In this document: piece by piece, positions 11,237 through 61,555 of the stretch | Layout: every line of letters starts with the position of its first letter | Position numbering within the stretch: the first letter of the stretch is position 1 | Sequence record: OZ346158.1 | DNA length: 64,000 bases | Direction: 5' to 3' (one strand) | Source: a phage | Position numbers and translations under genes: made by a program | The notes under the pieces: generated by a model | What the model was told of the DNA's origin: nothing | The model's database searches: none | What the model saw: the letters and a program-made list of their open reading frames with translations, nothing else

Positions 11237-11544
11237 TATTTTAAGTTATCAGATTGCCAGAGATCAGGAGGATTTCTAAAATGGATTTCCTCCTTTTGAT
11301 ATTTTACCTACCAGGATATTTTAAAATCCTTAGAAAATCAGAAAATGGATCGAAAACTAAAATGGATTTTTCAGAGCAGGCACGACGAGATGAACCACTC
11401 ATCCTATCGTCTGCACCATATTCCAGACCACCATTACAGATTTCCCGCACATGCTCACATCCTTCTACTAGAACTTCCCCCACTTACCCTTGACCTTTTA
11501 TAGTAATAATCCAACCACTACCTTGAAGTTGTGGCGCAGCTTTC

Positions 11545-11720
11545 CAAGTACTCGATCTGTTTTTCGTTTCAAAGATTTAATTTTCTGAAAATTTTTCTCG
11601 ATAAATTTCTCAGTACTCGATCTGTTTTTCGTTTTCTGAATCGGATTTTCTGGAAATCGTTCCGGCTCTCGACCTGAAATTTTTGGGGACGAAATCGATT
11701 TTTCGTTTTCAGAAATGGAT
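11545..11720. repeat. Direct repeats (25-nt unit cagtactcgatctgtttttcgtttt x2 plus degenerate copies) in non-coding region
   Basis: Identical 25-mers at 11545-11569 and 11611-11635; related atcgatttttcgttttc at about 11693. Confidence 0.8.
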
Positions 11721-11839
11721 TTTTAAAATTTCTATATGGGAATATTTTAGTGGATACTATTTTATAGGAAATTGTTACGGAGGGTAATTAGCGTGCTAAT
11801 TAAATTTATTAAATGCGAGGAGTTCTCATTTAGAATTTT

Positions 11840-12050
11840 GAATGATAATCATTCTCGTTTGCAGAATAACGGGCAGGCCCGGTGATTGTCTCCCGGCCCC
11901 TACTGCCCCGGCTTGTTATTATAGTAACACACAGGACAAAGAAAGCAAGAAGTTTTTGCATAAATTTTTAGACGATAATGATAATCGTTCTCATTTCATG
12001 CAGCGCCCATCCCCGGTGGTTGTCTCCCCCGTCACCGGTGCCTGCCGTCC
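11840..12050. repeat. Two direct copies of a ~60-bp unit (gataatc..ttctc..gcag ... ccggtgRttgtctccc)
   Basis: Units at about 11840-11901 and 11972-12048; the 16-mer ccggtgattgtctccc recurs inverted at 21016-21031. Confidence 0.75.
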
Positions 12051-12418: not shown

Positions 12419-12447
12419 TTGACAGCTCGGACAGTTCTTGTTATTCT
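12419..12447 (+). promoter_or_regulatory. sigma70-like promoter TTGACA-N17-TATTCT
   Basis: Read directly. Confidence 0.5.
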
Positions 12448-12500
12448 TATCCTCGCAAGGTGAACAACACCACACCAATTAACAGAGAGGATAAAAAATC

Positions 12501-12698
12501 ATGAACGCCTACGGAATTAAAGTACGTCGCAACACTCGCCAGGTGGTCACCAATCAAGTGATTTGCCGGGTGGATGTAACCATCAACAACGGGCAAGGCC
12601 TTTATAAATTTCGTCGCGGTCATAGCTATACCCTGCAACAGCTTAACCGTTGCGCCCTGACAAAAGGTCAGATCAACCACTGGTTTAATAAAAAATAA
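12501..12698 (+). CDS. hypothetical protein
   Basis: SD agagagga; basic small protein. Confidence 0.55.
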   Translation: MNAYGIKVRRNTRQVVTNQVICRVDVTINNGQGLYKFRRGHSYTLQQLNRCALTKGQINHWFNKK

Positions 12699-12700
12699 TG

Positions 12701-12729
12701 TTGACATAGGGTCTGACACAAAATACACT
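12701..12729 (+). promoter_or_regulatory. sigma70-like promoter TTGACA-N17-TACACT with A-rich upstream tract
   Basis: Read directly. Confidence 0.55.
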
Positions 12730-12761
12730 GAAATCACAAAAGACACTAAGAGGATAAAATC

Positions 12762-13160
12762 ATGAAAACCACTACCTTTAATTTTGATAATGCGGACTTT
12801 TCTTTTTCTGATGTCAAGAACTGCCGCCGTGATCGTGGATTTTACAAGGCTTATAATCTGGTGGGCCTGGACGATGACAATAATTTGCACGAAGTAGCTG
12901 AGATCCGGTATTATGCCGCCGCCAGTGGTAACACTCACTACTGCGTGTTTTGGATTCACGACAACAAGAACAATAAGTACGGTTATACTGGCGGCAAGGC
13001 GAGCGGTCACGGTTACGATAAAGCTAACGCAGCACTTGAGAGCGCATTAAATGCTATGGGGATCACTGCCGACGGCTGGATCTACGAAGAAGAGTTTTTG
13101 TCGGCACTTGCTGACCACCTGGGCTATAAAAAGCACATTGTGACATGCGCCCACGAATAA
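12762..13160 (+). CDS. hypothetical protein
   Basis: SD aagaggata. Confidence 0.55.
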   Translation: MKTTTFNFDNADFSFSDVKNCRRDRGFYKAYNLVGLDDDNNLHEVAEIRYYAAASGNTHYCVFWIHDNKNNKYGYTGGKASGHGYDKANAALESALNAMGITADGWIYEEEFLSALADHLGYKKHIVTCAHE

Positions 13161-13243
13161 AAATCATTGACACGCTGCAAAATTTAAGTAAACTAGACAC
13201 AAAAGGCGGGAATGTTTCCCGCCAGCACAAAGGAAAAAAGATC

Positions 13244-13639
13244 ATGAATAAGAACGTACGCCGCATCATGAACGAACTGGCAAACGATGAAAAAATTATT
13301 GACATGCATTTAGTCAACATTTGCCGCCGTTGTGTAACATATAACAACCGCGCCGCAAAAGCGCGTGAGATGAACGCAAAAGGCACCTTAAAGCCCTTTC
13401 AGGTGGTTGTAAAATCTATAACCAGTGCAGCAGGCCAGGCGCATGACCACAACAACGGGAGCACTAATATTGATCCGTCTTACGTAATGAAACGGATCCG
13501 GACTTGCAAGAATAAAGAGCAGGTGTATAATGTCATAGACTGGTTGGATTCTATGGGCGATGTGGTTTACAATAGGTTTTCTGCAGCTATCGAGATCCAG
13601 CTTGACAGGTTGGACGGTAAAGTACTGAAAACTTACTAA
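13244..13639 (+). CDS. hypothetical protein
   Basis: SD aaaggaaaaaag; preceded by promoter and 5' hairpin ggcgggaatgtttcccgcc. Confidence 0.55.
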   Translation: MNKNVRRIMNELANDEKIIDMHLVNICRRCVTYNNRAAKAREMNAKGTLKPFQVVVKSITSAAGQAHDHNNGSTNIDPSYVMKRIRTCKNKEQVYNVIDWLDSMGDVVYNRFSAAIEIQLDRLDGKVLKTY

Positions 13640-13686
13640 GATTATTTTTAGATGGCCTTGACTTCAGGGCCATCAATAAAGTAAAC
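13640..13686 (+). repeat. 47-bp conserved intergenic element, copy 1 (hairpin gatggcc/ggccatc)
   Basis: Identical to 14271-14317; near-identical to 18010-18058. Confidence 0.85.
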
Positions 13687-13719
13687 TAATCCCAGTTAAG
13701 CGAAAAAGGAGGCTTGAAG

Positions 13720-13839
13720 ATGAGCACTACACGCCAACACACAAAGGTAACGATTATCGTTTGCATCATTGGTTACATCCTGGCGCAAATGTTGATGGGT
13801 AGCGCCAATGATTTCGCAAAATTTTTCTTAGACTTTTAA
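13720..13839 (+). CDS. small hydrophobic protein (39 aa)
   Basis: SD aaaaggagg; TM-like IIVCIIGYILAQMLM. Confidence 0.4.
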   Translation: MSTTRQHTKVTIIVCIIGYILAQMLMGSANDFAKFFLDF

Positions 13840-13867
13840 TTGACAAGCTAACTTAAATCAGTATAAT
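13840..13867 (+). promoter_or_regulatory. sigma70-like promoter TTGACA-N16-TATAAT
   Basis: Perfect hexamers. Confidence 0.6.
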
Positions 13868-13919
13868 ACTAAGCACATAAACGGGAAAACTTCCCAGAAC
13901 ACCAAAAGGAGAAAACATT

Positions 13920-14270
13920 ATGAATACTTCCATCACTATGACCGCCGAAGAAAAAGCCCTGCAGATCGCCGCTCTGAAAAAACAGATTGCAGAACTTGAA
14001 GACAAGATCGACAATTTTGAAATCGACGAAGACAAGTACGACGATAAATATGATGAATGGTTAGACGAGATCTACGGCGAAATTATGATCGGAAACATTT
14101 CTTTTCTTCCGTCGCGTATCCTCAAGGAGCTAGATCCTATCGCTTACCGCTGCGGATTTAGCGACTACATCGACAGCCTGGATATTGAGGACGATGAAGA
14201 ATACCAGGAATTACAGACAGAGTTAGAAGAAGCAAAAGAAGAGCTTGCAGAACTGGAAGAAAACGAGTAA
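13920..14270 (+). CDS. highly acidic coiled-coil protein (candidate DNA mimic)
   Basis: D/E-rich throughout (EDKIDNFEIDEDKYDDKYDEW...DIEDDEEYQELQTELEEAKEELAELEENE). Confidence 0.55.
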   Translation: MNTSITMTAEEKALQIAALKKQIAELEDKIDNFEIDEDKYDDKYDEWLDEIYGEIMIGNISFLPSRILKELDPIAYRCGFSDYIDSLDIEDDEEYQELQTELEEAKEELAELEENE

Positions 14271-14317
14271 GATTATTTTTAGATGGCCTTGACTTCAGGG
14301 CCATCAATAAAGTAAAC
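14271..14317 (+). repeat. 47-bp conserved intergenic element, copy 2
   Basis: Exact repeat of 13640-13686. Confidence 0.85.
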
Positions 14318-14359
14318 TTTATACTGTTAACACTGAACTAATGCATAGGAGTTAAAACC

Positions 14360-14605
14360 ATGGCAGCACTAATCACCAAATATTATGCCCCTACCAACAC
14401 CAAAAGCGCCCGTATCATGGTAAAAGGCTTCGGACGTAAAAAGGTGTACACCTGGGATTATGCCTTAGACACGGAAGACAACTACACCAACGCGATGACC
14501 GATTTTATTAATGATCTGAACACGCGGATCTTGACAAATTATAAAATTACCGATATTGCCTATATAGGGGAAGGCGGGATCTGTTTTGTCGGTATCGTCA
14601 AATAA
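14360..14605 (+). CDS. hypothetical protein
   Basis: SD ataggagtt. Confidence 0.55.
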   Translation: MAALITKYYAPTNTKSARIMVKGFGRKKVYTWDYALDTEDNYTNAMTDFINDLNTRILTNYKITDIAYIGEGGICFVGIVK

Positions 14606-14680
14606 GCTGTTTTTTCGGTGGTCCTGGTAGCAGGGCCATCTATAAAGATAGTTTATCAATACAATGAAAGGAGAAAGTAC

Positions 14681-15034
14681 ATGATCAGCGGGGCAAGTTT
14701 TATTATTGGCGCTATTGCTACGGCTTTAATTGTAAACAAGATCCAATCTAAAAACGAAAAAGATAGCAACGCCCTTACAGAATACCCGTTTTGGGTATTC
14801 AACGACAATGAAGACTATATTATCAAGTACAAGAATGAGAAGGGCGACCAGGTAACACCTCGACCGATCCCGGCTTACAAGATGCAAGAAACACTATACC
14901 GCCTAAAGGCTGGAGGCGCAAAAATCGTAGACTTTTGGGGATACGATCACACAGATCAGGAAGTTATAAAGCGCCGTATCCGGGCTATTCAGGCCAATAT
15001 TGAAGTTAGCAAGGGGGGAATATATGAAGATTAA
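14681..15034 (+). CDS. hypothetical membrane-anchored protein
   Basis: SD gaaaggagaaag; N-terminal TM FIIGAIATALIV. Confidence 0.5.
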   Translation: MISGASFIIGAIATALIVNKIQSKNEKDSNALTEYPFWVFNDNEDYIIKYKNEKGDQVTPRPIPAYKMQETLYRLKAGGAKIVDFWGYDHTDQEVIKRRIRAIQANIEVSKGGIYED

Positions 15035-15221
15035 TTTTGAGAAGATTGTAAAGCGATCTCATGCTTCCGAAGAGCTGCCGGAACGCCGCCAGCGCAACAA
15101 TAAACTGAATAAGCCAAAAAGATTTGGGAAGATCTGGCGGAATCATTATGATCGCAAATTACCGGGCCTGCTTTTGGAACGTGAACGACAGGCGGAACGA
15201 TACCGCCACAAAGGCAAATAA
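15024..15221 (+). CDS. small basic protein
   Basis: SD aaggggggaa; Arg/Lys-rich. Confidence 0.45.
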   Translation: MKINFEKIVKRSHASEELPERRQRNNKLNKPKRFGKIWRNHYDRKLPGLLLERERQAERYRHKGK

Positions 15222-15230
15222 CAACCAACG

Positions 15231-15256
15231 CCCCGCCATTGTGCGGGGCTTTTTAT
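15231..15256 (+). terminator. intrinsic terminator
   Basis: gccccgc-cattg-tgcggggc followed by TTTTTATTT. Confidence 0.7.
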
Positions 15257-15403
15257 TTCTATCCTACAAATAGCGCCCCTGGTTGGCCCTGTAAGCGCCA
15301 AAAAGGCCCCACCTATGCAATCGCCCCCCCTTTAACCTGAAAACATCGCTTAGGGCCGTTTTATGGCGTTAAAAATATCATTGACAGTGATTTTATTTAA
15401 AGC

Positions 15404-15431
15404 TTGACATCTTAAACAGGTTAGCTATACT
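15404..15431 (+). promoter_or_regulatory. sigma70-like promoter TTGACA-N16-TATACT
   Basis: Read directly; a second TTGACA lies 23 nt upstream. Confidence 0.55.
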
Positions 15432-15463
15432 AACCACATCAAAGAGAGAAAGGAGTAAACGCC

Positions 15464-15724
15464 ATGCGTAAATTAAAAAATTTTGATAAAGTTGATGTTG
15501 TCCTGAATAATTTTTACTACTGCAACAACAAGGCCATTTGGTGGCGTGATAGTTCCACCGATAAAGTCAAGGCGCGCTTTCTCCAGGGGCACTGGCAAGG
15601 CCGCCCAGTGATTAAAATCATGGGGCAATTGGTAGCGTTTAAAAATTGCCGCCGTGTTGATGACGTTGAAGAGATCTTGAATATTTTACGCCACAATAAT
15701 TTAAAAAATAGTGTTGACAAGTAA
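15464..15724 (+). CDS. hypothetical protein
   Basis: SD gaaaggagtaaacg. Confidence 0.55.
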   Translation: MRKLKNFDKVDVVLNNFYYCNNKAIWWRDSSTDKVKARFLQGHWQGRPVIKIMGQLVAFKNCRRVDDVEEILNILRHNNLKNSVDK

Positions 15725-15741
15725 ATCTCAATAAGTATACT
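15714..15741 (+). promoter_or_regulatory. sigma70-like promoter TTGACA-N16-TATACT, followed by 5' hairpin ggcgggaagttttcccgcc
   Basis: Read directly. Confidence 0.55.
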
Positions 15742-15798
15742 TAAGCACACAGGCGGGAAGTTTTCCCGCCACTAACAAAGAAAATAGGAGAAAATATC

Positions 15799-16422
15799 AT
15801 GACCACCGTTAACATTACCACAGGTTGCAATTTATCTTTCGACGTGCTGACCGACGAACAAAAAGAAAAAGCTATTGAAATGGTCCGCGAAAGAGAAGAA
15901 CACAGCGGAGAGGATTTTTTCGCAGAAAGTGTAATTGAATATTATAAAGAACAAGTTTTTCCAGAGTACGGCCTTGAAGATACCGATGTACATTGGTCCG
16001 GCTTTTGGTGTCAAGGCGATGGCGCGTCAATTAATGCTGAAAATGTAGACTTAGAGAAATTCTTGCGTAAAGTCAAGGCCCTGACCAAGTTCCGATCAAT
16101 TCGTCACTTGTTCGGCACAATGCACGATGGCGAACTATCAGCCAGTGTTGAACGCGACAAGTACAGCCATTACAGCCATGAAAACACTGTAAGCGGATAT
16201 ATTGATACTACCTGGCTAGATCTGACCGCAAAACAAGAAAATAAAGTAGAAGATCTGGAAGAGCTGATCACCGAGACGGTACGGGAGCTATCCCGCAAGG
16301 TTTATGTAGACCTGGAGGAGGCCTATCTTGAACAGTTTACTACCGAAAACCTGATCGGCCTTATTGAAGCCAATGATTGGCGGTTTGATGTGGATGAATA
16401 TGGAGAAATGAGTTTTTCATAA
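15799..16422 (+). CDS. hypothetical acidic protein
   Basis: SD aataggagaaa; 207 aa, E/D-rich. Confidence 0.55.
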   Translation: MTTVNITTGCNLSFDVLTDEQKEKAIEMVREREEHSGEDFFAESVIEYYKEQVFPEYGLEDTDVHWSGFWCQGDGASINAENVDLEKFLRKVKALTKFRSIRHLFGTMHDGELSASVERDKYSHYSHENTVSGYIDTTWLDLTAKQENKVEDLEELITETVRELSRKVYVDLEEAYLEQFTTENLIGLIEANDWRFDVDEYGEMSFS

Positions 16423-16513
16423 ATAAAGTGTTGCAATAATCTAAAAACCTGCTATATTAAAACTTAAGGGGGAGAGATGACTTGCCCCCACACAAAACAA
16501 AGAGGAAAACATC

Positions 16514-16894
16514 ATGAAAAACACTACTAAAGCTATTGACACCGTTATGTTTAACCTGGTTACATTCCGTGAAGATATGAAAGATCTTCCACGTGAAACA
16601 GTGTGCGACCATATCGAAAACTATCGCAAACTAATCAAAGAGTTGCCTTTAAAACGTGACCAGTACGCGGCTAACGCTATGCTTAACGCCATGATCAAGA
16701 AAATGATTCAGTGCGATTTGACTTTAGCTTATGATTATGCAGGTGGTCGTTTTGCAGTATACAATCAGCCCGTGCCTGGTATGAGCACCACAGAAGAATT
16801 GCACGCGTTAAATCTAAAACAAGACGTATGGGATAACATGCCCCGCGTGGTGGTGTGGGCAGAAAGCGGAAAGATTTACGGCGATAATTTTTAA
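16514..16894 (+). CDS. hypothetical protein
   Basis: SD agaggaaaac. Confidence 0.55.
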   Translation: MKNTTKAIDTVMFNLVTFREDMKDLPRETVCDHIENYRKLIKELPLKRDQYAANAMLNAMIKKMIQCDLTLAYDYAGGRFAVYNQPVPGMSTTEELHALNLKQDVWDNMPRVVVWAESGKIYGDNF

Positions 16895-16958
16895 TCAGGT
16901 AACAGGCGGCATATTTGCCGCCTTATTGTTAAACAGAACTGCAAAAGAGGTACATAGA

Positions 16959-17808: not shown

Positions 17809-18009
17809 ATGAGCAACAATATCCGCGTTATTAACTTCAAAAAAGAAGAAAAAATTGCCGTGCTGATTGACGGTCAAGAAATCTTTAAAGGTGATTATGA
17901 AGATCATCAAACGGCGATTAGTATCACTCGCGTGATTGGTTACCATAATTTTTACCCTCAAGGCGCTGAGGCAGCAGTAAAACGAATTAAAGAGATTGTA
18001 GGCCTGTAA
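17809..18009 (+). CDS. hypothetical protein
   Basis: SD caaaaggagaaac. Confidence 0.55.
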   Translation: MSNNIRVINFKKEEKIAVLIDGQEIFKGDYEDHQTAISITRVIGYHNFYPQGAEAAVKRIKEIVGL

Positions 18010-18058
18010 AATTTATTTTTAGATGGCCTTGACTCCAGGGCCATCAATAAAGTAAATT
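18010..18058 (+). repeat. conserved intergenic element, copy 3 (2 mismatches)
   Basis: tttttagatggccttgactccagggccatcaataaagtaaa. Confidence 0.8.
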
Positions 18059-19316: not shown

Positions 19317-19550
19317 ATGATGGAACAAATTAAACGCGCCGAGGCTATTAATGGCAACGTGATCTATTTTGTCAGCAAAAACGAAAAAGGCGTACCCTAT
19401 GCGGCGGTAATAGTACAGCCTGACGGCGATTATTGGTGTACTGTGTACGGCGCTTATTCTTTTGGGCGTCCAGTGCATGATAAAATTTTGAAAGTAGCGA
19501 ACCCTACCGGGAAAAATATCACAGCAGAAAAATTTTTTGAAAATAGTTGA
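19317..19550 (+). CDS. hypothetical protein
   Basis: SD aagagaggcaaa. Confidence 0.5.
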   Translation: MMEQIKRAEAINGNVIYFVSKNEKGVPYAAVIVQPDGDYWCTVYGAYSFGRPVHDKILKVANPTGKNITAEKFFENS

Positions 19551-19621
19551 CATGACCATATAAGACTGTAGTATATAAATCAAAGGGGCAAGCCCCACCA
19601 ACCACAAAGAGGATAAAAATC

Positions 19622-19801: not shown

Positions 19802-19891
19802 AATAGTTTGAAAACAAACAACCATCTTACAAAGCATAATACATAAGGCGGTGGAATGGTCCGCCACCTGGAACAAGAAGAGGAAAACAAA

Positions 19892-19996: not shown

Positions 19997-20311
19997 GGTT
20001 GGCAAATGATCACTAACAAAACAGGCAAGCGGAATTTTTACTCAACTTACAGATCGGCAAGCCTGAGATCTGGTATTGCACTAAAACACCACGTGACGAA
20101 ATGAAAGACTTCACCGCCACGCTGCAACGGGTAAAGATATCCATCACGCAGAAAAAGGCCTTGATAGTGGTGGAAGGTGAGATCCCTCAAACCGTTGTTA
20201 TAGTTGAGCGTACAGCATAGTTTAATTTATACCGATACCCGAAAATTAACCAACAAAGCATAAACAGGCGGTTACCGCCGCCTTAAACGTAGCAGAAAGA
20301 GGATAGACACA

Positions 20312-20596
20312 ATGAAAAAGATGATCGCAGTGGTTGCCCTGGTTGTTGGACTTAATGCGCCTGTAATGGCTAAAGAGCTGGCAAAAGAGGTTAATCTAAC
20401 GGATATTCATGCCGTCAATCGAATCGGGGTTACTTATCGCTTATGCCTTGCCGCTAAAACTTTTAAGGACGGCACGACAGAGTACTACGGATTCGAAGGT
20501 GTCCGGTGCGGTGAACTTGCTCGCGACCTTAAGGAAGATCCAGACCTGGAGGATCTGCCCATCACCGTAAACGGGAAAACTTACGTAAACCGTTAA
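20312..20596 (+). CDS. secreted/periplasmic small protein
   Basis: Signal peptide MKKMIAVVALVVGLNAPVMA. Confidence 0.55.
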   Translation: MKKMIAVVALVVGLNAPVMAKELAKEVNLTDIHAVNRIGVTYRLCLAAKTFKDGTTEYYGFEGVRCGELARDLKEDPDLEDLPITVNGKTYVNR

Positions 20597-21063: not shown

Positions 21064-21092
21064 TTGACATCTGCCAGGTGGTGGGGTAGCAT
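21064..21092 (+). promoter_or_regulatory. sigma70-like promoter TTGACA-N17-TAGCAT
   Basis: Read directly. Confidence 0.5.
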
Positions 21093-21147
21093 TTATCTCG
21101 AAGGGGGCAAAAGCGCCCACACAACAACCGGAAGAGAGGAAAACGCC

Positions 21148-41602: not shown

Positions 41603-41661
41603 TATTATAGATTATCTAATACTATTAGTCAACACAAAAGTTACCTATCGCTGTGATAGGA

Positions 41662-60742: not shown

Positions 60743-60817
60743 GCCCTGTTAGCTTAGTGGATAAAGCAGCGGCCTTCTAAGCCGTTGACACTGGTTCGAG
60801 TCCAGTACGGGGTGCCA
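60743..60817 (+). tRNA. tRNA-Arg (anticodon UCU)
   Basis: Hand-folded cloverleaf: acceptor gccctgt/acggggt, anticodon loop cuUCUaa, T-loop ttcgagt, encoded CCA. Confidence 0.85.
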
Positions 60818-60821
60818 AATT

Positions 60822-60908
60822 GGGGAGTTATCCCGTAGAGGTAGCGGTGTAGACTGTAAATCTATTGTCATTGCGACTCGGGTGGTTCGACTCCACCACT
60901 CCCCACCA
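60822..60908 (+). tRNA. tRNA-Tyr (anticodon GUA), long variable arm
   Basis: Acceptor ggggagt/actcccc, anticodon loop ctGTAaa, T-loop ttcgact, CCA. Confidence 0.85.
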
Positions 60909-61022
60909 AATTTATATTTTTAGATGCATAAATAATACAGATAATGGCATTGATATTTATCGTCGTTTATACTAGTCACTAACTGCTCGAAAATCAGTGT
61001 CATTATCAGTATAATTTATAAA

Positions 61023-61113
61023 GGAGGGTAGGGAGCAATGGTGCTCAAGCGGTCTTGAAAACCGTCCCGTTGAGGATGACTCGATGATGGTTCGATTCCA
61101 TTACTCTCCGCCA
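61023..61113 (+). tRNA. tRNA-Ser (anticodon UGA), long variable arm
   Basis: Acceptor ggagggt/actctcc, anticodon loop ctTGAaa, T-loop ttcgatt, CCA. Confidence 0.8.
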
Positions 61114-61211
61114 CATTGTTGACCTTGTAATTAAGCGAAAGCCGGAAGCAGAACCGGATTATCAAATGTTACAGTCGTCATCGCCGACTAGCAACATGGT
61201 CAACATACTGA

Positions 61212-61308
61212 GCTAGGTAAGCCCTTTGGCAAGGGCGAGGATTTTTAATCCTGAAAATAGACGAGGTAGTCGTTGAATACATAGGTGGTTCGATTCCATC
61301 ACCTAGCA
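61212..61308 (+). tRNA. atypical tRNA-like gene (possible tRNA-Lys UUU with about 30-nt variable region)
   Basis: Perfect 7-bp acceptor gctaggt/acctagc, D-arm gccc..gggc, T-loop ttcgatt; anticodon arm imperfect; 97 nt. Confidence 0.4.
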
Positions 61309-61315
61309 CCTTTTT

Positions 61316-61388
61316 GCTGATGTAGCACAATCGGTAGTGCAATTGATTTGTAATCAATAGGTTGTAGGTTCAAGTCCTGCCATCAGCA
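61316..61388 (+). tRNA. tRNA-Thr (anticodon UGU)
   Basis: Acceptor gctgatg/catcagc, anticodon stem attga/tcaat, loop ttTGTaa, T-loop ttcaagt. Confidence 0.85.
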
Positions 61389-61392
61389 CCAA

Positions 61393-61467
61393 GGCCCTGT
61401 AGCTGGAAGGTTCAAGCAAGCGACTCATAATCGCCAGACGGTGGTTCAATTCCACCCAGGGCCACCA
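61393..61467 (+). tRNA. tRNA-Met/Ile2 (anticodon CAU)
   Basis: Acceptor ggccctg/cagggcc, anticodon loop ctCATaa, T-loop ttcaatt, CCA. Confidence 0.85.
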
Positions 61468-61478
61468 AATAGTAAATA

Positions 61479-61555
61479 CTCCGCGTAGCTCAGCTTGGTA
61501 GAGCGCCTGATTTGGGATCAGGAGGTCGAGTGTTCGAATCACTCCGTGGAGACCA
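61479..61555 (+). tRNA. tRNA-Pro (anticodon UGG)
   Basis: D-arm tagctcagcttggtagagc, anticodon loop ttTGGga, T-loop ttcgaat, CCA. Confidence 0.85.

Follow-up and report, generated by a model that had tools for sequence, protein, structure and literature searches.

Promoter–hairpin cassettes in the early region of an rV5-like Escherichia coli phage

What might a stable stem-loop do when it stands between a strong promoter and the Shine–Dalgarno (SD) sequence of a small phage gene? The question arises from two near-identical 19-nt hairpins in sequence record OZ346158.1, of which we analyzed a stretch of 64,000 nucleotides (hereafter the window). The source is an rV5-like Escherichia coli phage of the genus Vequintavirus, with 99.9% identity to phage JeffSchatz. 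The initial annotation had predicted that transcripts begin with the stem-loop, which would serve either as an mRNA-stabilizing device or as the shared site of an RNA-binding regulator. Our literature search found no start-site, half-life, or transcriptome data for vequintaviruses, and hairpins 1, 2, and 3 described below are absent from the promoters and terminators tabulated in the rV5 genome paper.

Hairpins between promoter and Shine–Dalgarno sequence

Both hairpins are present, the first at 13205–13223, one base off the 13204–13222 originally given, and their placement was correctly called: each starts 10 nt past the −10 of its promoter (TTGACA-16-TAAACT and TTGACA-16-TATACT, respectively), with an SD and an ATG farther on. 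Together with a third, related locus, the features are as follows.

13167–13194, + strand: promoter P1, TTGACA (13167–13172), 16-nt spacer, TAAACT (13189–13194), A-rich stretch 5' of it
13205–13223, + strand: hairpin 1, GGCGGGAAtgtTTCCCGCC, 8-bp stem, 3-nt loop, starting 10 nt past the −10
13230–13639, + strand: SD AAGGAA (13230–13235) and 131-aa gene (ATG 13244, end 13639), ortholog of bas55_0104
15714–15741, + strand: promoter P2, TTGACA-16-TATACT
15752–15770, + strand: hairpin 2, GGCGGGAAgttTTCCCGCC, 8-bp stem, 3-nt loop, starting 10 nt past the −10
15786–16422, + strand: SD AGGAG (15786–15790) and 207-aa gene (ATG 15799), ortholog of bas55_0111
13840–13867, + strand: promoter P3, TTGACA-16-TATAAT
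13882–13897, + strand: hairpin 3, CGGGAAaacTTCCCaG, 5-bp GGGAA/TTCCC core, starting 14 nt past the −10
13906–13911 and 13920–14270, + strand: SD and 116-aa gene downstream of hairpin 3

The pattern GGCGGGAAKKTTTCCCGCC matches exactly at 13205–13223 and 15752–15770 on the + strand, when shuffled sequences give 0.02 matches. Hairpins 1 and 2 both fold at −14.6 kcal/mol (z −3.16 and −3.09, respectively), and the remainder of their leaders, SD and AUG included, is unpaired in the fold, with an A/C-rich spacer; hairpin 3 folds weakly (−5.8 to −6.8 kcal/mol, z −1.2). From the end of hairpin 1 it is 6 nt to the SD and 20 nt to the ATG, and from the end of hairpin 2 it is 15 and 28 nt. All three promoters are preceded by an AT-rich stretch such as aaaaatca or aaaaatagtg, and P2 contains the stop codon (15722–15724) of the gene upstream of it.

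The genes around these cassettes are all annotated as hypothetical. The 131-aa product matches phrog_13245 and the 207-aa product phrog_5162, both of unknown function, the former having no Pfam match. Overall, Pfam and PHROG searches with the genes downstream of the hairpins returned neither a function nor any paralogy, so that the shared leader does not stem from gene duplication. An IMG/VR search with the 207-aa protein found only two close relatives. Homologs of the 207-aa gene are also present in Asteriusvirus jumbo phages, where the leader is short and the hairpin absent, and the hairpin is thus not tied to this gene. In a covariance search against Rfam 15, only tRNAs reached the gathering threshold, and at E<=1 nothing overlapped the hairpins between 12000 and 22500.

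Hairpins 1 and 2 are parts of repeated Vequintavirus early-promoter cassettes, and we consider it somewhat probable that a stem-loop near the 5' end stabilizes or insulates early mRNAs in them and that the repeats act also as recombination linkers. In each cassette, an A-rich stretch leads into a sigma-70 promoter close to consensus; some 10 nt later comes a GC-rich stem-loop that opens with G, then roughly 20 nt of open A/C-rich spacer, an SD, and the start codon. The genes behind the cassettes are small, unrelated to one another, and of unknown function. If host RNA polymerase initiates about 7 nt past the −10, as sigma-70 geometry predicts, the stem-loop would lie within roughly 3–5 nt of the transcript's 5' end, its first base being predicted near +4 to +5 at P1 and P2 and near +8 to +10 at P3. 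There, it would hinder 5'-end-dependent attack, that is, conversion by RppH and cleavage by 5'-monophosphate-stimulated RNase E, and, since the hairpin pairs only with itself, the ribosome-binding site would keep the same open context. This protection would extend to transcripts from the cassette's own promoter as well as to upstream read-through cleaved in the AU-rich promoter segment, and the expected outcome would be early mRNAs that are long-lived and well translated. The prediction that transcripts begin with the stem-loop agrees with the leader position, the conserved promoters, and a preferred spacing of 8–10 nt described below.

Other hairpins and early promoters of the window

Inverted repeats of the form GGCGG...CCGCC occur seven times in the window against 0.13 expected, six of them between 13.2 and 20.3 kb. 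Further hairpins and candidate cassettes of the window are listed here.

19547–19596, + strand: cassette TTGACA-16-TAGTAT, 10 nt, hairpin GGGGcaagCCCC (19585–19596), 59-aa gene (ATG 19622)
21064–21118, + strand: cassette TTGACA-17-TAGCAT, 10 nt, hairpin GGGGGCaaaaGCGCCC (21103–21118), 90-aa gene (ATG 21148)
19808–19868, + strand: cassette with promoter TTGAAA-21-CATAAT and hairpin GGcGGTGGAatggTCCGCCaCC (19847–19868)
20267–20279, + strand: hairpin GGCGGttaCCGCC, 5-bp stem, before the gene starting at 20312
16904–16923, + strand: AGGCGGCatatttGCCGCCT then TATTGTT (TTATTGTT), 10 nt past a stop codon, no promoter
13637–13687, + strand: 51-bp repeated promoter cassette, copy 1, whose GGCC...GGGCC hairpin spans the −35
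14268–14318 (100% identical), 18008–18058 (90%), 14603–14653 (69%): further copies of the 51-bp repeat

Three of these hairpins had been grouped with hairpins 1 and 2 as similar, and they differ in kind. The one at 19847 (−14 kcal/mol, z −2.4) belongs to a true cassette with the layout promoter–hairpin–SD, which drives different downstream genes in different phages and whose promoter has a 21-nt spacer here versus TTGACA-17-CATAAT in relatives. The one at 20267 begins just 2 nt past a −10-like CATAAA, too close for the whole stem to lie at a transcript's 5' end, which makes its membership doubtful. The third, at 16904–16923, is invariant in 12 phages, its equivalent site is labeled a putative terminator in the HdK5 record, and it is best described as a terminator-like, intercistronic hairpin rather than a 5' leader hairpin. 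As for the remaining cassettes, relatives carry GGGGCaacaaGCCCC as the hairpin at 19547, where the fold is weak here (z +0.45), and GGGCAaaagTGCCC at 21064.

Five + strand promoters share a fixed layout, the hairpin starting 10 nt past the −10 at four of them and 14 nt past it at 13840. Among the clearly intergenic early promoters, a hairpin is found at six of the eight with leaders of at least 47 nt (a weak one at 12419), and those with leaders of 26–36 nt have none downstream of the −10. When folding was assessed over all 45 promoter candidates, the excess was modest (Stouffer z −2.5) and many good promoters had no hairpin, many candidates being inside genes or having short leaders. Hairpins on the minus strand begin 3–7 nt past the −10 (41632, 36128, 24273); they would overlap the start site and are thus not explicable as 5'-leader stem-loops.

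Could the hairpins act on transcription arriving from upstream instead? The promoter-early stem-loop (PeSL) cassettes of T4-like phages (Arbiol et al. 2010, PMC2839356; Comeau et al. 2014, PMC4122927) were read by their authors as terminators or attenuators, and one stem-loop gave strong termination and reduced lacZ expression about as much as rrnB T1. By analogy, hairpins 1 and 2 would end or attenuate upstream read-through, or block 3' exonucleases after cleavage, thereby isolating each small gene and having no 5'-end role for their own transcript. No other terminator lies between the preceding stop codons (13158–13160 and 15722–15724) and the two hairpins, hairpin 1 bears a putative-terminator label in the HdK5 record, the distance from −10 to hairpin spans 3 to 15 nt in the window, and the hairpin of the 51-bp repeat overlaps the −35. 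However, the sequences 3' of hairpins 1 and 2, AGCACAAAGG and ACTAACAAAG, contain no U-tract on the + strand, so that the feature defining an intrinsic terminator is absent from the transcribed strand, and the terminator scan calls neither there, when canonical U-tract terminators exist nearby (e.g., 15230–15249). Efficient termination at +5 to +23 would likewise halt transcription from the cassette's own strong promoter, and the 8–10 nt peak in distance from −10 to stem is a constraint that a purely upstream-acting terminator does not need. We regard this explanation as unlikely.

Being palindromic, the hairpins could in principle terminate antisense transcription. The scan does call the minus strand of hairpin 1 (13223–13205, followed by TTTTGTGT) terminator-like, and this is its only call at the two hairpins, but hairpin 2 has no minus-strand T-run (CCCGCCTGTGTG), the T-run of hairpin 1 is cut down to TTT in one relative, and between about 1 and 22.4 kb no minus-strand gene is annotated and the GC skew is uniformly positive. 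A role in antisense termination is therefore highly improbable. Three further candidates were rejected on anatomy: an RNase III site (stem too short), a lambda boxB/nut site (loop wrong and boxA absent), and an N4-type DNA hairpin promoter.

Conservation among relatives and occurrence in other viruses

From a comparative perspective, the promoters have an invariant −35 hexamer and a conserved spacer length across 10–13 related phages (10 in the case of P1), and in the orthologs the promoter hexamers and stems persist when flanks and loops vary. The loop of hairpin 1 is TGT or ACA, and in phage MiataMamis the hairpin is replaced at the same spot by GGCGG-11 nt-CCGCC; the loop of hairpin 2 is GTT, AAC, or CAA, with single stem mismatches in three lineages. 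Different hairpin sequences thus occupy the same position in MiataMamis P1, as they do at other early promoters of the window, which gives indirect support to a stem-loop that would prolong mRNA half-life through its structure and not its sequence.

The P1 and P2 cassettes are 71% identical over 56 nt, and several indels set close relatives apart in the early region around the hairpins; phage magaca, for instance, lacks 13688–14318, the junction falling inside the 51-bp repeat. Sister cassettes of those with hairpins 1 and 2 thus act as homology patches for the gain, loss, or swap of small genes between related phages. One alternative is that the hairpin has no function of its own and is a passenger in a cassette spread by duplication and recombination, template switching restoring its palindrome. 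The resemblance of P1 to P2 fits this idea, and loops that have flipped (TGT to ACA, GTT to AAC) suggest template switching driven by the palindrome. Some lineages also tolerate mismatches in the stem, and the jumbo-phage homolog of the P2 gene does without the hairpin. Against it, stems vary less than flanks and loops across orthologs, the replacement hairpin of MiataMamis sits at the same position, unrelated hairpins stand at equal distance from other promoters, here and in distant phages, and the position peaks at 8–10 nt past the −10. We hold a mere passenger to be improbable.

A second alternative is that GGGAA-N3-TTCCC is a sequence-specific site, either a DNA operator (at +5 to +23, where a dimeric repressor would shut off some early promoters) or an RNA hairpin through which a phage or host protein would control translation or decay. 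Here, none of 15 distinct ortholog and paralog variants departs from the GGGA/TCCC core when loop and flanks vary, and the core occurs at a fixed 3-nt spacing at three promoters versus about 0.06 expected. Within this GGGAA family of 15 variants, compensatory changes were found at 0 of 8 pairs and the covariation score was below that of shuffles, which leaves room for an attenuator or for a sequence-specific binding site, but this lack of covariation carries little weight given that the vequintaviruses compared diverge by only 5–12%. Moreover, the core is present at only three of the roughly 17 intergenic + strand early promoters, the rest having unrelated hairpins (GGGGC/GCCCC, GGGCA/TGCCC) in that position or none; in MiataMamis, the P1 ortholog keeps a hairpin but not the core; the P3 variant GGGAGtacATCCC alters the two half-sites asymmetrically; and no Rfam family matches. 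The shared regulator site that had been proposed is thus backed by the conserved sequence of the core and weakened by its sparse distribution and by the swap in MiataMamis.

The same architecture recurs in Phapecoctavirus- and Justusliebigvirus-like phages, on a phage contig of 348 kb, and on numerous further viral contigs. The core follows consensus promoters in 59 unique, unrelated viral-metagenome matches against 26, 13, 9, and 9 for four palindromes of equal composition, the −10 and the first paired base are most often 8–10 nt apart, as fits a stem-loop near the 5' end, and the start codon lies about 18–22 nt past the hairpin in this wider set. This excess speaks for a binding site, but the GGAGA/TCTCC palindrome is enriched too, as if composition (a leading G-run and a purine-rich 5' arm) were preferred over any one specific site. 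Of the 59 matches, 34 have G and 2 have C at loop position 3 (21 and 2 of 39 after clustering); loop bases oriented relative to the promoter argue for a strand-specific, RNA-level element and against a symmetric DNA operator. The asymmetry between G-U and A-C mismatches in the stem flanks of the metagenomic matches gave no signal (20 vs. 18). All considered, a sequence-specific site at the GGGAA-type hairpins is distinctly unlikely. There is, in our estimation, an even slimmer chance that GGG(A/G)A-NNG-U(C/U)CCC hairpins 8–10 nt past sigma-70 promoters form a widespread, oriented element recognized sequence-specifically, by a host factor or by RNA polymerase at escape, and not a generic stabilizer; if so, both the loop bias in viral metagenomes and the 2–6-fold excess relative to palindromes of equal composition would be accounted for.

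Known counterparts and meaning of the cassettes

Returning to the reading of the hairpins as 5'-proximal parts of repeated early-promoter cassettes, the closest known kind is the PeSL. Both have an early promoter that is strong, sigma-70-like, and preceded by AT-rich sequence (here with a −35 that is invariant in orthologs); a stem-loop made of G-run, loop, and C-run (here GGCGGGAA/TTCCCGCC at −14.6 kcal/mol, elsewhere GGGGC/GCCCC and GGGCA/TGCCC); an intergenic place in a variable region, the 3' end running into the SD and start codon of a small gene without known function; multiple recombinable copies (71% over 56 nt for P1/P2; 100% and 90% for the 51-bp family); and indel junctions between close relatives within cassettes (magaca 13688–14318 and the 19847 cassette). 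A PeSL subclass with the stem-loop downstream of the −10 has been described. The differences are that the lineage here is Vequintavirinae rather than T4-like, the two PeSL papers (PMC2839356, PMC4122927) making no mention of rV5; that the stem-loop here starts 10–14 nt past the −10 and should thus be transcribed from the cassette's own promoter; that there is no U-tract; and that the PeSL authors' reading is a terminator or attenuator of upstream transcription and not a 5' stabilizer. PeSLs are also described as forming mini-circles during infection. The initial annotation had missed hairpin 3 (13882–13897) and this PeSL-type, repeated-cassette nature.

The stabilizing mechanism it had put forward is that of E. 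coli mRNAs such as ompA and papA. The stabilizing role of 5'-terminal stem-loops is well established (Emory, Bouvet and Belasco 1992; Bouvet and Belasco 1992; Bricker and Belasco 1999; all listed in PMC3997798): a stable hairpin near the mRNA 5' end is followed by an open leader and protects independently of its sequence, as proposed for hairpins 1 and 2; there, however, the mapped 5' end is within very few nt of the hairpin, when here it is placed from promoter geometry, with 3–9 unpaired nt predicted. Rho-independent terminators resemble the hairpins in having a GC-rich 8-bp stem and a short loop, but hairpins 1 and 2 lack a coding-strand U-tract and lie between promoter and SD. Another phage mRNA, that of T7 gene 10, begins with a stem-loop of the GGGA...UCCC type, behind which come an open leader and a strong SD; this leader and synthetic 5' hairpin stabilizers are both in use in expression vectors. 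T7 RNA polymerase starts at the GGG, whereas the promoters here are of the host sigma-70 type and the hairpin is offset from the start.

The promoter–hairpin cassettes are ordinary in kind and do not overturn current understanding. From an annotation perspective, these hairpins should not be labeled terminators by default, as one public record does. If the proposed stabilizing role is correct, the cassettes would help to explain the fast, high expression of takeover genes from host polymerase, and they would constitute compact promoter–leader parts for expression design. Finally, gene shuffling mediated by cassettes would no longer be confined to T4-like phages if PeSL-like cassettes are present in Vequintavirinae, in phages resembling Phapecoctavirus and Justusliebigvirus, and on the 348-kb phage contig.

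Hairpins behind early promoters

The initial annotation had proposed near-identical hairpins at 13204-13222 and 15752-15770, just past -10 elements and ahead of an SD. Both are present with an exact match to the proposed pattern, the first lying one base further on (13205-13223), and their placement is borne out: each starts 10 nt past the -10 of a strong promoter (P1 and P2, respectively), with an SD and an ATG downstream (ATG at 13244 for P1 and at 15799 for P2). The pattern gave 0.02 matches in shuffled sequence, and the window contains 7 GGCGG...CCGCC repeats, where 0.13 would be expected. The hairpin feature is real and non-random; no Rfam family matches the hairpins, and we regard it as very unlikely that they have no function.

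Promoters, hairpins, and look-alikes in the window
13167-13194, plus strand: P1 promoter, TTGACA-16-TAAACT
13205-13223, plus strand: hairpin 1, GGCGGGAAtgtTTCCCGCC
13882-13897, plus strand: hairpin 3, 14 nt past the -10 of TTGACA-16-TATAAT (promoter P3), sharing the GGGAA-N3-TTCCC core of hairpins 1 and 2
15230-15249: canonical intrinsic terminator, GCCCCGCcattgtGCGGGGC then TTTTTATTT, directly after a gene ending at 15221
15714-15741, plus strand: P2 promoter, TTGACA-16-TATACT
15752-15770, plus strand: hairpin 2, GGCGGGAAgttTTCCCGCC
16904-16923, plus strand: terminator-like hairpin after a stop codon, with no promoter, followed by TATTGTT
19547, plus strand: cassette with an unrelated G-first hairpin, GGGGcaagCCCC, exactly 10 nt past the -10
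19847-19868, plus strand: true cassette hairpin, promoter at 19808-19840 (TTGAAA with a 21-nt spacer)
20267-20279, plus strand: hairpin too close to a -10-like element for a 5'-end position
21064, plus strand: cassette with an unrelated G-first hairpin, GGGGGCaaaaGCGCCC, exactly 10 nt past the -10

Three further hairpins, near 16905, 19846, and 20266, had been described as similar; the one at 19847 is a true cassette hairpin, that at 16904 is terminator-like, and that at 20267 is doubtful. Relatives phiWec193 and AlexBoehm have TTGACA-17-CATAAT at the 19847 cassette promoter, which a 4-nt insertion has probably weakened in the window phage. Among clearly intergenic early promoters, a hairpin is found in six of the eight leaders of at least 47 nt (weak at 12419), and none is found downstream of the -10 in leaders of 26-36 nt. 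On the minus strand, hairpins behind the promoters at 41632, 36128, and 24273 (GGCTCAC...GTGAGCC, GGTTAGT...ACTAACT, and AAAGAGGG...CCCTCTT, respectively) start just 3-7 nt past the -10 and would overlap the start site, so that an explanation by 5' hairpins is not directly transferable to them.

At 12500-16500, identity is 99.9% to Escherichia phage JeffSchatz (Vequintavirus, BASEL Bas55) and 90-99% to some 120 further rV5-like phages. The record of JeffSchatz shows about 55 plus-strand genes in the ~22 kb surrounding the hairpins, labeled hypothetical protein in all cases except one, and the GC skew of the window is positive until ~22 kb and changes sign thereafter. The same region is matched by 17 GenBank records (MG0656xx) titled "Campylobacter phage," 15 of which give C. 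jejuni as host; DNA identity is 94.6-95.5% among the matches listed, and these host labels look doubtful. Elsewhere in the window, ~550 bp without a convincing gene (11254-11840) may be the "non-coding" box of the rV5 map and could represent a candidate origin or regulatory region; within it lie three direct repeats of ~47-57 nt each, spaced by 65-74 nt and rich in TTTTCGTTT (11538-11723), and a hairpin spanning a promoter-like site (11264-11296). Six tRNA genes are clustered at 60743-61552 (plus strand), and a weak Rfam match to Clostridium-PBP RNA at 16444-16516 (37 bits versus a gathering score of 94, E 0.04) is most likely due to chance.

Possible leader-hairpin, terminator, and binding-site roles

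By sigma-70 geometry, transcription would start ~7 nt past the -10, so that in the P1 and P2 transcripts the hairpin would begin around +4 to +5. Folded as RNA from this predicted start, both leaders form a single 8-bp hairpin with a 3-nt loop (-14.6 kcal/mol, z about -3.1), the remainder, SD and AUG included, being open. Such a 5' hairpin reportedly shields E. coli mRNAs from 5'-end-dependent decay (Emory, Bouvet and Belasco 1992; Bouvet and Belasco 1992; Bricker and Belasco 1999, as listed in PMC3997798). The stabilizing leader proposed in the initial annotation is plausible.

A PeSL-type attenuator, or a 3'-end barrier against read-through, would account for the stem-loop in another way. 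However, hairpins 1 and 2 are followed by no U-tract on the plus strand, while canonical terminators occur nearby (15230-15249, an example of how a genuine terminator looks in the early region), and strong termination at +5 to +23 would cancel the output of the promoter in its own cassette. We consider this alternative unlikely, and a terminator acting in antisense hardly credible. In phage HdK5, the counterpart of hairpin 1 (locus L117, 4427-4445) is labeled "putative transcriptional terminator, -14.00," although the site lies between promoter and SD and is without a U-tract. Because of the missing U-tract and the self-defeating position, we lean, with some reserve, toward a 5'-proximal stem-loop that would stabilize and insulate the transcript while also forming part of a recombination linker.

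The comparison covered 13 loci taken from viral contigs and from the genomes of related phages. Neither the -35 hexamer nor the length of the spacer varies among them, and the stems are mostly retained, with variable flanks and loops. Three lineages carry single stem mismatches, and MiataMamis has, at the P1 position before the orthologous gene, GGCGG-11 nt-CCGCC in place of the hairpin. In the formal covariation count over 15 distinct variants, 84% of cells were paired and compensatory changes were absent, at a divergence (5-12%) that gives little power either way; the GGGA/TCCC core is thus conserved as sequence, and covariation lends no support. A sequence-specific binding site, in DNA or RNA, is in our estimation rather improbable. 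The loops read TGT or ACA at P1 (13213-13215) and GTT, AAC, or CAA at P2 (15760-15762). TGT and ACA are exact reverse complements, as are GTT and AAC. A switch by point mutation would take three substitutions at once; this suggests that template switching inverted the center of the palindrome instead.

Repeated cassettes and module shuffling

P1 and P2 are 71% identical across 56 nt, from the -10 through the spacer. P1, P2, P3, 19547, and 21064 each precede a gene from a different PHROG family, all five families being of unknown function, and none of these genes has a qualifying Pfam domain, which rules out gene duplication as the origin of the shared leader. The 207-aa gene behind P2 (15799-16422), also without a Pfam match, has Asteriusvirus jumbo phage homologs at 58-60% identity and remoter ones in Klebsiella, Salmonella, Serratia, and Erwinia jumbo phages, one annotated "YeeU-like antitoxin."

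Another cassette family, 51 bp long, combines TTGACT-18-TAAACT with a GGCC...GGGCC hairpin spanning the -35.

Copies of the 51-bp cassette (two are 100% identical)
13637-13687
14268-14318
14603-14653
18008-18058

Phage magaca lacks exactly 631 bp (13688-14318), comprising two genes and cassette P3, with its junction within the two identical repeats, as would be expected for recombination between them. At the 19847 cassette, downstream genes differ among phages and homology breaks between SD and ATG; other indels also adjoin cassettes.

By sequence, the P1 and P2 cassettes come closest to a kind described from T4-like phages, the PeSL cassette, in which a strong early promoter and a G-run/loop/C-run stem-loop precede small genes of unknown function; these cassettes mediate modular shuffling, and one subclass has the stem-loop downstream of the -10 (PMC2839356, PMC4122927). 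All sequence-level PeSL features are present in the window, although the lineage is Vequintavirus rather than T4-like. By these features, the window cassettes belong to a known class and can be described as PeSL-like promoter-hairpin cassettes whose hairpins lie in the 5' leader. In the lists of promoters and terminators given by the rV5 genome paper, these hairpins do not appear.

Occurrence beyond the genus

A scan of IMG/VR for consensus sigma-70 promoters with GGGAA-N3-TTCCC 6-18 nt downstream returned 65 stretches and 59 unique matches. Among these are E. coli phages resembling Phapecoctavirus and Justusliebigvirus, a 348-kb phage contig, and many unrelated contigs. Many matches have a stem longer than the searched core, with SD and ATG ~18-22 nt further on, and the first paired base most often lies 8-10 nt past the -10. 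Four palindromes of equal composition in the same promoter context gave 26 (GGAGA/TCTCC), 13 (CCCTT/AAGGG), 9 (GGGTT/AACCC), and 9 (AAGGG/CCCTT) unique matches, pointing to a preference for G-run-first, purine-rich 5' arms, with GGGAA the favorite. This preference might be tied to purine-rich initially transcribed sequences aiding promoter escape.

The loops of the 59 matches are biased toward NGG or YNG on the sense strand: TGG occurs nine times and CCA never, and position 3 is G in 34 and C in two (21 and two, respectively, in 39 groups after clustering). Such an orientation relative to the promoter favors an RNA-level, strand-specific element; the vequintavirus loops depart from this rule. 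The preference for GGG(A/G)A...U(C/U)CCC hairpins behind phage promoters is the sole part of these observations that may lead somewhere new.
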